From the sequence record NC_025430.1: a stretch of DNA of 42,351 bases, one strand, 5' to 3'. The notes below the pieces were generated by a model. It had not been told where the DNA came from. It searched no databases and worked only from the letters and a program-made list of their open reading frames with translations. The translations under genes and the position numbers were made by a program. The stretch is from Escherichia phage vB_EcoM-ep3. This document shows positions 39,365-42,351 of the stretch, piece by piece (the stretch's first letter is position 1; every line of letters begins with the position of its first letter).

Positions 39365-40240
39365 ATGGCTACTATCGGGCAACTGTATAAATCAAAACAA
39401 ACCGCAGCAACGCCGCGCAAGGTGTTTTGGGTGCCGCTGGCTGAACTGTATGTGGAAGATGGCTACAACATCCGCGACGTGGACCAGGCGCACGTTGAAG
39501 AATTCCGCGATGCGTACCTGGCCGGTGAATATGTGCCGCCGCTGACCGTGGAAGTGACGCAGCAGGGCATCAAGGTGATTGATGGCCACCACCGCTTTGC
39601 CGGTGCAAAGATGGCCGCAGAAACCGGCCTGGAACTGCGCCTGGAAGTGAACGACATCACCGGCACCAGTGAGGCTGACAAAATCGCGCTGATGGTCACC
39701 AGCAGCCAGGGCAAGCCGCTGGAACCGCTGGAACGCGCCAAAGCCTATTCGCGCCTGAAAGCGCAGGGCTGGACCAATGACGAGATAGCCAAGAAGGTGA
39801 AGCGCAGCCCGTCAGACGTGGCCAACATGCTGGCCCTGGCTGAATGCCCGGAACCCATCAAAGACATGGTGCGCGGTGGCCAGATGTCCTACGTGACCGC
39901 CACCGAACTGACCCGCCAGCACGGCACCGAAGCCGAAGCCGTGGCCGCACAGGCGCTGGAAGAAGCCAAAGCCGCTGGCAAGGATAAAGTAACAAAGAAA
40001 TTCACCGAACCGAAGGCACCAAAAGCGCCGAAGGCCAAGCCGGAAGCAATCCAGCCACCGTTCGGCAAAGACAAGCTGACGCGCCTGGCTGACCTGGCCG
40101 TGCAAATCGAACTGGTCCACAGCGATGAACGCCTGGAAGATGCCGAGCCTGACGAATCCATGACCCTGCGCGCACCTGCTGGCGTGGTGCGTGAATTCAT
40201 GGCGCTGGTGGCTGACTACGTGGGCGGGGTGCCGGAATGA
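39365..40240 (+). CDS. ParB-like nuclease-domain protein
   Basis: 291 aa; N-terminal ParB/Srx-type motif (KVIDGHHRF) plus HTH-like segment (GWTNDEIAKKVKRSPSDVANMLAL); Lys/Ala/Pro-rich linker; no parA nearby. Confidence 0.7.
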   Translation: MATIGQLYKSKQTAATPRKVFWVPLAELYVEDGYNIRDVDQAHVEEFRDAYLAGEYVPPLTVEVTQQGIKVIDGHHRFAGAKMAAETGLELRLEVNDITGTSEADKIALMVTSSQGKPLEPLERAKAYSRLKAQGWTNDEIAKKVKRSPSDVANMLALAECPEPIKDMVRGGQMSYVTATELTRQHGTEAEAVAAQALEEAKAAGKDKVTKKFTEPKAPKAPKAKPEAIQPPFGKDKLTRLADLAVQIELVHSDERLEDAEPDESMTLRAPAGVVREFMALVADYVGGVPE

Positions 40241-40548
40241 AAGGCGAACTGAAAGCCGGTGGCCTGGCGCTGGTGATTGGTAACAACCCGCACGCTGGGA
40301 AGTGTGTAACGCTGGTTCGTTTTGTAACCCCTGGCCAGATGTTTAACATTCCTACAGGCGGAGAGACTTTCTTATCTCTGAAAGCCGATGCCTCATGGTT
40401 GGTGACCGGAAATGTTTATCCAAAAGGATGTGAACATGATCAAGGCTGGTCGCTTTTTGCGCCAAGATGCCTGCTGCCAATCGACGGCGACGACCACCAG
40501 GAACAGGAACAACTAACCAAAGACAAACCAGCCGAACTGACGGCGTAA
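40237..40548 (+). CDS. hypothetical protein
   Basis: 103 aa; ATGA-coupled to the ParB-like gene. Confidence 0.45.
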   Translation: MKGELKAGGLALVIGNNPHAGKCVTLVRFVTPGQMFNIPTGGETFLSLKADASWLVTGNVYPKGCEHDQGWSLFAPRCLLPIDGDDHQEQEQLTKDKPAELTA

Positions 40549-40557
40549 GGGGCATAT

Positions 40558-40779
40558 GTGAAACTGCGAAAAGTGGATGTGAAAGGAACCTATAACATCA
40601 GGTTCATCATTTCGATGACGGCAAGTGATGGCCGTGAGGCGTGCTGGTATCTTGAAACAGTAGAACGTTCTCTGAATAAAGCAGATAAGGGGAACTGGCG
40701 TAATGCAATAGCAGCCGATCTGCTACGAGGACGCCAGGCGCTGCGTGACATTATAAACAACCTAGCCGGTGAGGCGTAA
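40558..40779 (+). CDS. hypothetical protein (GTG start)
   Basis: 73 aa; GTG preceded by GCGTAAGGGG, the same context seen before the next gene. Confidence 0.4.
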   Translation: MKLRKVDVKGTYNIRFIISMTASDGREACWYLETVERSLNKADKGNWRNAIAADLLRGRQALRDIINNLAGEA

Positions 40780-40788
40780 GGGGATAGT

Positions 40789-40968
40789 GTGGAAGAAATA
40801 GAATACGTTGTAACACTGAAAATGGAAGATGGCGCGATGTATGAGGCTTTACGCGCCACCGCAACCAAAGATGGTGATCTATCTGTGCAGGCACCAGACC
40901 AGGAAGCCCTACTGGCAGTCCTGGATAAGATGCAGGAAATGATAGATTATATCCGTGAAAACATGTAA
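40789..40968 (+). CDS. hypothetical small protein (GTG start)
   Basis: 59 aa, frame checked; GTG preceded by GCGTAAGGGG; followed by a strong terminator. Confidence 0.35.
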   Translation: MEEIEYVVTLKMEDGAMYEALRATATKDGDLSVQAPDQEALLAVLDKMQEMIDYIRENM

Positions 40969-40973
40969 CACAC

Positions 40974-40998
40974 AGCCCGCCTCTTCGGCGGGCTTTTT
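40974..40998 (+). terminator. intrinsic terminator
   Basis: AGCCCGCC-TCTTC-GGCGGGCT hairpin followed by TTTTT. Confidence 0.8.
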
Positions 40999-41003
40999 GT
41001 TGG

Positions 41004-41030
41004 TGGCGACCCAGGAAGGAATCGAACCTG
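41004..41030 (-). other. tRNA 3'-end-like fragment (T-loop, acceptor 3' strand, CCA); candidate att core
   Basis: - strand reads CAGGTTCGATTCC TTC CTGGGTC G CCA: canonical T-loop, 7-nt acceptor strand, discriminator and CCA, but no matching 5' acceptor strand (GACCCAG) or D/anticodon arms upstream. Confidence 0.5.
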
Positions 41031-41571
41031 TAACATACAGCTTATACTACCTGCCGCAGACGCGCGAGGCGATGAATAAATGGGAAATATTGTTGCGAAA
41101 TGCACTTGCGTGATATAGGATTAAATTGTCAGTTGTAGAGATTCACGCTGTCGAGAGATACACGATGACCGCCGTGAAAGGACGGCACACAACAGGTAAG
41201 AGCATTGAACCCGTAGACCTCGCGGATTTGGTGAAAGGTGCCGCGCATTGCTCTTTCCGTTGTGGTGAATGCGCAGGCTGATGCGCGACCAATGTATAAA
41301 CAGCGCTCATGGCAAGCAGTAACCAATCTGCGCCTCAAGACAGCGTCACTGGTAGTGCGGGCGCTCTAACCAGTAAGCCGGAGTTCAGCACCGGCCACCA
41401 CAACACGCGCCGTGATGCGCTTTTGCGAACACTTCCAACCACCAGGGTGTTACCTCGCAACGTGAAAGCGCATCGCAGTGCGACATTCGCACAGACTGGA
41501 ACTTACCAGACTAGTGATTCCAATAAGGCAGGTGATCTGTATCTCGCATCACAGCGTCACGTGACACAAAA

Positions 41572-41592
41572 CCCCGCTTAGGCGGGGTTTTT
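41572..41592. terminator. bidirectional intrinsic terminator
   Basis: CCCCGC-TTAG-GCGGGG hairpin flanked by ACAAAA upstream and TTTTTCTTT downstream; lies just 3' of the - strand SprT-like gene and at the end of the + strand ORF-poor region. Confidence 0.75.
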
Positions 41593-41598
41593 CTTTGG

Positions 41599-42270
41599 TC
41601 ATTCGTCATCGCCTTCCGGAGTCATCGCGCCATGTTCCGGGCAGTGAGGCGGCCCGACCTCCAACCATTTTTGCGTTACCCGAACCGTGTAGCCGCATTC
41701 CTGGCATTCGCATTTTTTCAGCCTGGTGGTTTGCTTAGGCTTCGCCGTGGACGCACCGCCGACCGGTGCCACTTCGATTTCCTCCCCTTCATCATCGTCA
41801 CCGCCTTCATCCAGGCCGATGCGCAGGCGTGGCACTTTTATGGATATGCCACGGTCAAACGTCAGCTTGGCGTGCGGCATGGGGCCAAGTTCGTCCAGGA
41901 ACGGTTTGACGTACTCTTTGAATTTCTCGCCAGGCGTGGTGGCGGTCATCGGTCCATTCAGGCCAACAGCCTTGCACACAGTGGCAAACGCGCCCTTGTG
42001 GCCACAGTCAAAACCAACGGTGGCGTGCGTCAGTTCGTGCCACAGGTGGTTTGCGACCAGGTACGGTTCCACCTGGTCTGGCATGATGAATATTTCAAAG
42101 GTGTTGTCTGCACTGCACTTGCTGTGCCAGCACTGTGCCGCCGTACTGGACCGCGCGCCGCTGCTGCAAAAGCCAACTGACACCCGGAATTTTGGCATTT
42201 CATAGCCGAATTCTTTAAAACGCGGCGCAAACTTCGCCGCCAAAGCATTTAACCAACCTTCACGGTCCAT
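41599..42270 (-). CDS. SprT-like zinc metalloprotease with C-terminal zinc ribbon
   Basis: 223 aa; HExxH motif (WHELTHA) after a basic N-terminal region, acidic linker, C-terminal CECQECG...HCPEHG zinc ribbon; GAGG RBS and a perfect TATAAT (rc of 42306-42311) upstream on the - strand. Confidence 0.55.
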   Translation of the reverse strand: MDREGWLNALAAKFAPRFKEFGYEMPKFRVSVGFCSSGARSSTAAQCWHSKCSADNTFEIFIMPDQVEPYLVANHLWHELTHATVGFDCGHKGAFATVCKAVGLNGPMTATTPGEKFKEYVKPFLDELGPMPHAKLTFDRGISIKVPRLRIGLDEGGDDDEGEEIEVAPVGGASTAKPKQTTRLKKCECQECGYTVRVTQKWLEVGPPHCPEHGAMTPEGDDE

Positions 42271-42322
42271 ATATATTTCCTCTCAATGCGTTTAAACGTG
42301 TTTAGATTATACAAAGGCAAAG

Positions 42323-42344
42323 AAAAACCCGCCATAACGGCGGG
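42323..42344 (-). terminator. intrinsic terminator for a - strand transcript entering from beyond the window
   Basis: CCCGCC-ATAAC-GGCGGG hairpin (42328-42344) preceded on + by AAAAA; 22-nt near-identical to the terminator at 1-27. Confidence 0.6.
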
Positions 42345-42351
42345 GTGGTTA

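Follow-up and report, generated by a model that had tools for sequence, protein, structure and literature searches.

A deletion scar and a predicted modular, tRNA-like RNA gene in Escherichia phage vB_EcoM-ep3

The genome of Escherichia phage vB_EcoM-ep3 (NC_025430.1), a Jilinvirus-type myophage genome, was analysed over its whole stretch of 42,351 nucleotides (nt), referred to below as the window. The subject of this report is the region at 41004–41598, in which two elements are found: a deletion scar (41004–41113), where the remnant of a tRNA gene is fused to the tail of an integrase gene, and a predicted RNA gene (41093–41598), the central part of which belongs to a family of structured, modular RNA units. 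The scar together with a stand-alone modular tRNA-like phage RNA gene is taken to explain the whole region with a probability of about 0.6. A first-pass annotation, made from the letters of the sequence, had noticed a tRNA 3′ end followed by a structured region poor in open reading frames (ORFs), and had proposed an attachment (att) site, a non-coding RNA locus, ParB binding sites or a junction with host or other foreign DNA. Its observation is confirmed and its interpretation is partly supported; its reading as a live att site is largely refuted.

Deletion scar and predicted RNA gene

The final 8 kb of the window is 89–95% identical to the Jilinvirus-type HeidiAbel_Bas97 (Bas97 below), Salmonella phage PT1, ECO1230-10, ECOO78 and Alux-21. 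Loci of other genomes are cited by label where necessary, that is, L001 for ECOO78, L002 for Bas97, L005 for SeSz-2, L010 for Klebsiella phage 6991, L011 for Klebsiella phage Magnus and L012 for HK629. In Bas97 and PT1, the syntenic spot holds a complete tRNA-Arg(UCU) gene on the − strand (L002 2476–2552 in Bas97), then a 300-nt spacer with direct repeats, and then a tyrosine integrase gene of 403 codons on the + strand. In the window, only the two ends of this module are left. The − strand at 41004–41045 aligns with the 3′ part of the Bas97 tRNA from the CCA end to the anticodon loop, and the + strand at 41048–41113 holds the last 21 integrase codons (41048–41110) and the stop codon (41111–41113). 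In tblastn with the Bas97 integrase, this remnant corresponds to amino acids 383–403 of 403 (86% identity, E 1e-6), and no other credible match was obtained in the window. What is missing is the 5′ half of the tRNA, the spacer with its repeats and 382 of the 403 integrase codons. ECO1230-10 has an identical junction, CTTAT/ACTACCTGCCGCAG, and ECOO78 a nearly identical one; the deletion, of about 1.5 kb, therefore seems to be old and to have been inherited, in the window phage and ECO1230-10 at least.

As shown by these genome comparisons, 41004–41113 is a deletion scar, and the phage has lost its integration module. The ancestor would have resembled Bas97 and PT1, with a full tRNA-Arg(UCU), a direct-repeat spacer and a P4-type tyrosine integrase; a single deletion would then have brought integrase codon 383 directly up against the anticodon loop of the tRNA, and the tRNA piece would have decayed afterwards. 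The window piece carries four later changes, which break the T-stem and the acceptor strand, so that the T-stem (ACAGG/CCTTC) keeps only 3 of 5 pairs. That is to say, the 3′ end that the first-pass annotation had called canonical at 41004–41030 is indeed derived from a tRNA and has lost its 5′ half relative to Bas97, but it is no longer canonical, and its homology runs past 41030 to 41045 in the anticodon loop. With 42 nt of the 3′ part left, a broken T-stem and no Rfam tRNA match, it fails as a functional tRNA gene, and ARAGORN finds 0 tRNA genes in the entire window. Among E. coli tRNAs, none shares the 3′ end; the best tRNA-Arg is 80–84% identical to the intact Bas97 tRNA. The Bas97 tRNA-to-integrase region, searched for Bas97-like prophage ends in order to map attP, had no match in 5426 complete E. 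coli genomes. Since the integrase is lost, no E. coli tRNA exceeds 84% identity to the intact Bas97 tRNA and the region is absent from those genomes, the fragment is regarded as the relic of an integration module rather than a working att site.

The Bas97 spacer (L002 2560–2850) contains direct repeats, CATACCCTAAAC / CGTACCCTAAAC, that resemble arm-type integrase binding sites. No arm-type repeats flank the tRNA fragment in the window, and the Bas97 copies of CATACCCTAAAC lie in the segment that is deleted here. Compared with the intact Bas97/PT1 module, the window thus keeps the genomic position, tRNA-Arg(UCU) sequence and the integrase C-terminus YLPQ.REAMNKWEI.LRNA.A, and it differs in that the catalytic region and the spacer repeats are missing and E. 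coli offers no matching tRNA. The scar itself is ordinary. It shows, however, how a temperate Jilinvirus lineage turned integrase-less, which is relevant to the calling of such phages "lytic" for therapy.

The second element, 41093–41598, is best explained as a stand-alone predicted RNA gene of about 470 nt on the + strand, which consists of a promoter, a hairpin, two structured domains, a tail and a terminator. A promoter-like site read from the sequence at 41093–41121 (−35 TTGCGA at 41093–41098, a spacer of 17, −10 TAGGAT at 41116–41121) overlaps the integrase remnant, with 8 of 12 consensus matches. At the same position, family members of unrelated phages (L010, L005) carry TTGACA-17-TAGATT, and the window site probably drives the RNA gene. 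The leader (41150–41187) comprises a GTCGAGAGA block and the hairpin P0 (about 41168–41186, with a GAAA-type loop) directly 5′ of domain 1; the two also stand ahead of the units in SeSz-2 and in many IMG/VR loci, and P0 is present in the minimum free energy (MFE) fold. According to the covariance model described below, domain 1 is a long stem at 41188–41262, whose 5′ strand (41188–41207) and 3′ strand (41246–41262) enclose variable insert 1 (41208–41245). Domain 2, the tRNA-shaped part (41263–41404), is composed of a closing helix (41263–41267/41396–41400), hairpin H1 (41271–41275/41282–41286), variable insert 2 (41288–41376) and hairpin H2 (41377–41381/41391–41395).

Downstream of the unit, a 163-nt tail of Jilinvirus type (41405–41567) contains a long hairpin (41406–41482, inverted repeat I9, also in the MFE fold); Bas97 and ECOO78 have the same tail at 97–98% identity, and other loci with a unit lack it. 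In Bas97 and PT1, the leader and the tail are present and the unit is missing between them. The gene ends at a terminator (41568–41598), and the Rfam matches there cover only the terminator parts of small RNA models. The 469 nt of the + strand fold 5 standard deviations better than shuffles (z = −5.0), and in their MFE fold H1, H2 and the closing helix reappear, as does most of domain 1. The structured region of the first-pass annotation therefore stands, but the pairing GCGCATT/AATGCGC that had been picked out is not the one supported by covariation. A perfect 10-bp palindrome, GTCACGTGAC, lies at 41556–41565 just 5′ of the terminator and is kept in Bas97, ECOO78 and ECO1230-10.

Coding potential was as poor as it had first appeared. 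In 41004–41598, all ORFs are short, none has a Pfam match at E ≤ 0.01, and PHROGs gave chance-level matches (E ≥ 0.1). The longest, 41309–41581, has 90 codons and spans segments that are swapped in close relatives, and the ORFs of the region are not kept in relatives with different cassettes (ECOO78, ECO1230-10), so that no conserved protein emerges there. On both sides the gene order is kept among the relatives: tail genes, a ParB-like gene (39365–40240, HTH_ParB match), small ORFs, the region itself and a convergent gene (41599–42270, phrog_6361), which Bas97, PT1 and ECO1230-10 have in common; ECOO78 has a different gene at that place. The two terminators thought to bracket the region were both found on the + strand by the terminator scan. 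The one at 40974–40994, with a T-run to about 41003, closes the ParB-side operon and is kept in ECOO78, Bas97 and ECO1230-10; the other has its hairpin at 41568–41591 and faces the convergent gene. The latter had been called bidirectional, but on the − strand its hairpin is followed only by TTTT.

A family of RNA units with exchangeable cassettes

When 40950–41650 was searched by megablast, separate sub-segments matched unrelated phages, mostly at unannotated places, and the side-by-side reading of these places gave one recurring architecture of two domains. In domain 1, a variable insert of 24–95 nt is enclosed by the 5′ strand CACAACAGGTAAGAGCATTG and its pairing partner CAGTGCTCTTTCCGTTG, which form a covarying stem of about 19 bp. 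A boxA (NusB/E site) was considered for the TGCTCTTT strand and dropped, because this strand covaries with its partner. Domain 2 follows directly and opens with the closing strand GTGGTG; then come H1 (GCGCA-GGCTGA-TGCGC), variable insert 2 of 28–177 nt and H2 (GCCGG-AGATCAGCA-CCGGC), and the 3′ closing strand CACCAC(A) abuts H2 without a spacer. The loops of H1 and H2, GCUGA and UCAGC (41277–41281 and 41385–41389 in the window), are complementary and may pair with each other.

The structure was examined in two alignments. The first, A1, holds 29 distinct units including the window sequence, and 36 pairs were counted in it, namely 31 helix pairs and 5 loop-loop pairs. The proposed pairs are standard in 98.4% of its cells, against 32–54% when the partners are slid, and changes on both sides occur in 14 of the 36 pairs; none of 500 shuffles reaches these values. 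The second, A2, consists of 41 matches of R1, the covariance model built from A1, and includes divergent and tandem copies. Compensatory changes are seen there in 23 of 31 pairs, with all four helices represented, and again 0 of 500 shuffles reach this. Domain 1 has compensatory changes in 8 of 16 pairs in A1 and in 14 of 16 in A2. Moreover, one pair is U-G in 22 of the 29 A1 sequences, which would be a C-A mismatch on the opposite strand, and the RNA sense is therefore the + strand of the window. Visual inspection showed GATTGGATG/CATCCAATC in place of the closing helix GTTGTGGTG/CACCACAAC in the lambdoid loci L007, L053 and L089, and GTTGTGGTT/AACCACAAC in its place in ECO1230-10. A covariance-model scan had been proposed in the first-pass annotation; with R1, the window has a sole copy at 41188–41404 (135.8 bits, E 5e-29, model positions 1–179), the window sequence being among the 29 from which the model was built. 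Divergent copies are found in ECOO78 (51.8 bits), ECO1230-10 (46.1), SeSz-2 (57.6) and P22-like prophages (about 58), and none is found in Bas97 or PT1. Taken together, the sequence comparisons show the family, its structure, its strand and the shuffling of its cassettes, and the non-coding RNA locus that had been suggested is borne out as one covarying structured unit, with a promoter-like site upstream and a terminator downstream.

The family is widely distributed. At least 120 IMG/VR contigs contain exact matches to a core pattern, CGTTGTGGTGAATGNNCAGGCTGATG (26 nt, of which 24 are specified), and 137 GenBank phage records match in "distant" mode, with Klebsiella, Escherichia, Salmonella, Erwinia, Cronobacter and other hosts. 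Among these records are Klebsiella siphoviruses, 157-kb Ackermannviridae, and lambdoid HK, P22-like, Stx, Erwinia and Cronobacter phages. A set of 100,044 species-representative genomes yielded the core at 16 places, which lie in 14 genomes; apart from one 4-kb Martelella scaffold, these are all Enterobacterales. The insert-2 version of the window occurs in 190 of the 5426 E. coli genomes, at a prophage location where the context was inspected. A tRNA gene is present in 17 of the IMG/VR loci, and in 16 of these it lies on the same strand 82–592 nt from the unit. Many copies carry their own promoter and terminator. Tandem back-to-back arrays of 2–3 units also occur (L118 147–764, L096 1–358, L090 2587–3038), and the tandem copies differ in their cassettes and in domain-2 subtype, for example with H2 as CCGGG-AGGCA-CCCGG.

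Several positions recur. Some copies lie after the late-promoter tR′ hairpin and before the holin gene (HK629, L024, L117). Copies of domain 2 only are located 15–25 nt past boxB, with nutL (boxA/boxB) on one side and an intact gene for an N-like antiterminator on the other. Such copies, with the closing helix recoded to GATTGGATG/CATCCAATC, were noted in lambdoid and P22-like prophages (L007 2940–3143, L008, L053 11139–11330, L089 6453–6560), where the nutL-to-N gaps of 600 nt are left unannotated by PGAP. In addition, a conserved, apparently structured block, GGCACATGCGTCGATAGCGGTCCGGGG...GGTAGCCGGAATGTGCAAGCC, stands about 150–230 nt upstream of the unit in L006, L013, L014, L016, L018, L027, L114 and L118, and no Rfam family matches it. 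In Uetakevirus-type phages, the cassette is found, oppositely oriented and accompanied by a Gp49-family gene, between the terminase gene and the portal gene, and the 3′ tails of the unit RNAs end in a DicF-like sequence and a terminator (L006 3207–3256, L013 2703–2751), which scores 22 bits with the Rfam DicF model, under its threshold of 48. Genes of HNH homing endonucleases were observed directly upstream of units in HK629 (L012 933–1445) and in L030 (upstream of 174), and in L030 the HNH insertion splits a tag-template module (see below) from domain 1.

While the frame is conserved, the cassettes are exchanged. The three integrase-less Jilinviruses, that is, the window phage, ECOO78 and ECO1230-10, have three different cassettes at one spot, and the integrase-bearing Bas97 and PT1 have none. 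Insert 2 of the window is 98% identical to that of P22-like prophages and 85% to that of a Klebsiella-type prophage, and insert 1 differs. This mosaic BLAST pattern indicates cassette exchange at the conserved cores.

Some of the cassettes resemble host translation RNAs. Insert 2 of L042 and L077 and the interior of the ECOO78 unit (L001 4305–4375) match E. coli 16S rRNA nt 242–282 (helix 11), with Smith-Waterman scores of 42–45 against 19–21 ± 2 for shuffles, and the stem has a compensatory UA-to-AU swap. This likeness surfaced only by Smith-Waterman alignment with shuffle controls; a blastn-short comparison of the full set of units with E. coli rrnB and ssrA gave nothing at E < 1e-3. Several versions of insert 1 hold T-arms (GGTTCGAWTCC), and others hold a GGGCTCATAACCC arm like that of initiator tRNA. 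In insert 1 of L123 and L030, 13–15 nt are identical to 16S rRNA around nt 1068–1082. About 90 nt upstream of the unit, a tmRNA-like tag template was found in L010 (1281–1322) and L011 (1273–1306), behind a strong TTGACA-17-TAGATT promoter, and also in L020, L115, L127 and L132. The templates have the resume context AUAAAU, continue with GCAAACGA... and end in ..AVA*/..MAA* (ANEEMYLAVA, ANDDVVLMAA, ANDDQFLAVA); in one example, AUAAAU-GCAAACGAUGAU...GCGGCGUAA encodes ANDDVVLMAA. At these loci no acceptor 5′ strand is visible, and ARAGORN made no tmRNA call.

Possible roles of the RNA and competing explanations

Domain 2 appears to be laid out like a tRNA in which a variable cassette replaces the anticodon arm. 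Its parts are, in order, a closing helix, a 3-nt linker, a hairpin of 5 bp, a variable arm and a second 5-bp hairpin that directly adjoins the 3′ closing strand; in a cloverleaf, the acceptor, D, anticodon and T arms follow one another in the same way. The zero-nucleotide junction between H2 and the closing helix fits as well. A divergent copy on the − strand of L093 (6374–6572) has a canonical D-arm at H1 (GCUC-AACGGC-GAGC) and a T-arm at H2 (GGUGG-UUCGACU-CCACU); real tRNA-Arg and tRNA-Met genes lie within 10 nt downstream of it, and it has a weak Rfam tmRNA-type match (E 0.07). Domain 2 would be stacked on the stem of domain 1.

It is proposed, tentatively and at odds clearly below even, that the unit is a tRNA-like scaffold for the processing and stabilisation of cargo RNAs. 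The frame would be handled like a tRNA precursor by host RNase P and 3′ trimming, and the stem of domain 1 might be cut by RNase III. Cuts at fixed points would then yield nuclease-resistant RNAs that carry the cassettes, many of which imitate host translation RNAs, and that accumulate as stable small RNAs. Engineered tRNA scaffolds and tRNA "punctuation" work on the same principle. Should the frame prove to be a natural tRNA scaffold, many of the "empty" gaps between the genes of enterobacterial phages would be accounted for, and the frame would offer both a new handle on phage tRNA clusters and a ready-made frame for stable RNA expression.

The core is exact in Klebsiella siphoviruses and Ackermannviruses, in lambdoid and P22-like prophages, in Erwinia phages and in this myophage, and cassettes are swapped between near-identical genomes. 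An exact frame with swapped cassettes suggests contact with a conserved host machine, combined with a cargo engaged in an arms race. A bolder proposal, which we hold to be rather unlikely, is a swappable "display" RNA, whose strictly conserved tRNA-shaped frame would rely on tRNA processing by the host to present exchangeable hairpins. Several of the hairpins copy parts of the host translation apparatus (16S helix 11, tRNA arms, an anticodon arm like that of initiator tRNA), and they would serve to capture translation factors or as decoys that counter RNA-targeting immunity. If this were true, the display RNA would be the RNA-level counterpart of the protein anti-defence islands.

Several points weigh against the RNA gene as it is described here. 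The members of the family are known from sequence alone. The A2 pair counts are inflated by fitting that alignment to model R1, and the loop-loop pairing is without covariation in a sample chosen by that very sequence, since the loop bases were fixed by the search pattern. Domain 2 is not recognised by ARAGORN or by the Rfam tRNA model, no CCA is encoded at a fixed place 3′ of the closing helix, and a regex search for domain-2 copies with true T-arms found only the L093 copy. The cassettes of the window, insert 2 included, gave no recognised host look-alike in blastn-short or Smith-Waterman comparison. Finally, the promoter near 41110–41125 in the first-pass annotation is matched in position in L010 and L005 and is regarded as real, but it is weak, and it fell below the threshold of the promoter scan and is for that reason absent from its list.

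Among the other explanations, the one that survives best is that of an anti-defence decoy, in which the frame merely displays hairpins imitating host translation RNAs, which would soak up RNA-cutting toxins, defence nucleases or host RNA-binding proteins. Phage tRNA genes are thought to counter tRNA-targeting defences, and the units adjoin such genes; the look-alike of 16S nt 242–282 (score 45 against 19.6 ± 1.6 for shuffles), the GGTTCGAWTCC T-arms and GGGCTCATAACCC motifs in inserts, the tag templates of L010 and L011 and the rapid turnover of cassettes between near-identical phages all agree with it. Most cassettes, however, including those of the window, have no identified host look-alike, and no partner protein is known. 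The decoy would be compatible with the scaffold proposed above and not exclusive of it; we consider it unlikely.

Less probable still is that the unit acts in cis, as a processing site, stabiliser or antitermination aid for its own operon, and not as a trans-acting RNA. The domain-2-only copies just past nutL boxB and ahead of the N gene are placed as such an element would be, as are those of L012, L024 and L117, located past the tR′ hairpin of the late operon and ahead of the holin gene. The unit of the window, by comparison, is followed by only a tail and a terminator that faces the convergent gene, which leaves nothing downstream to regulate, and many copies have a promoter and a terminator of their own.

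Very little probability is given to a selfish or passively spread non-coding cassette, whose cores would mainly be short patches of homology for recombination between phages and whose RNA would have no function. The mosaic BLAST pattern with break points at the conserved cores and the HNH genes beside some units (L012, L030) would suit such an element, as would the direct repeats CACAAC that flank the unit, between which Bas97 has no unit. But compensatory changes and G-U pairs on one strand indicate selection on the RNA fold rather than on DNA identity, and the core is exact across phages of distant genera.

A live att site in the tRNA 3′ end (attP, or an attL/attR core), with ParB sites or a host junction adjoining, is hardly credible now: the fragment does derive from a tRNA that adjoins an integrase in Bas97 and PT1, and a ParB-like gene lies 1.6 kb upstream, but the remnant is mutated, the window holds no integrase beyond the 21 codons, E. 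coli has no matching tRNA or integration region, the one palindrome GTCACGTGAC is at chance frequency in the window with no repeated palindrome or inverted repeats beside it, and phage synteny continues on both sides. The preferred reading thus remains that of a scar followed by a modular tRNA-like RNA gene.

Comparison with known RNAs

The unit family is apparently uncatalogued. An Rfam 15 scan of 40000–42351 at E ≤ 10 gave terminator-type partial matches only. In scans of 23 related loci, no match fell on the unit; only terminator fragments, true tRNAs, C4/isrK elsewhere and weak tmRNA- or DicF-like partials were obtained. The literature, searched by literal sequence and by topic, yielded no description of the unit. 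Group I and II introns, retron non-coding RNA, CRISPR-repeat mimics and ERIC repeats were considered and set aside, with no model match, reverse transcriptase or motif match.

A similar layout is found in the tRNA-like domain of tmRNA and in the engineered "tRNA scaffolds" used for stable RNA expression, where a large insert replaces the anticodon arm. In these as in the unit, a T-arm-like hairpin and an acceptor-like helix are stacked, a hairpin like a D-arm is present, and a big insert occupies the anticodon site; L093 has its weak tmRNA match, and some family members carry the tmRNA-like tag templates. In contrast to tmRNA, there is no G3-U70 pair, no fixed CCA and no tRNA or tmRNA call by ARAGORN or Rfam, and the tag template, where present, lies upstream of the tRNA-like module rather than inside it. 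Five bases of Watson-Crick complementarity also take the place of the usual D-loop/T-loop contacts of tmRNA and tRNA.

YrlA RNAs, which are bacterial and Y-RNA-like (Rfam RF02553), are 80–130 nt long and are encoded beside Ro60/TROVE genes (Chen et al. 2014, PMC4201824). They resemble domain 1 where insert 1 holds a T-arm (L011, L013, L016), that is, a long stem of flanking strands bearing a tRNA-like domain. They differ from the units in that no Ro60/TROVE gene is annotated beside the units examined, and the YrlA model has no match on the unit. GOLLD and ROOL are listed in Rfam as ornate RNAs of phages (Weinberg et al. 2017, PMC5737381). These large structured RNAs of unknown function are borne by phages and prophages, often lie beside tRNA genes, and so share the habits of the units. 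The units, however, show no sequence or model similarity to them, belong to another host clade (Enterobacterales), and are smaller (160–350 nt), modular and often in tandem.

The domain-2-only copies share the nutL-to-N leader position with the RNase III processing hairpin of the lambda N leader. The C4 RNA of P1 and the CI RNA of P4 (Rfam C4, RF01695) are tRNA-like phage RNAs processed by RNase P; the C4 model matches L014 966–1053 but not the unit. In spite of the shared layout, habits or position, the unit fails the defining tests of tmRNA, YrlA, GOLLD/ROOL and the lambda N-leader site. It may therefore be placed among the tRNA-like or ornate phage RNAs, with a real chance that it represents something more novel.

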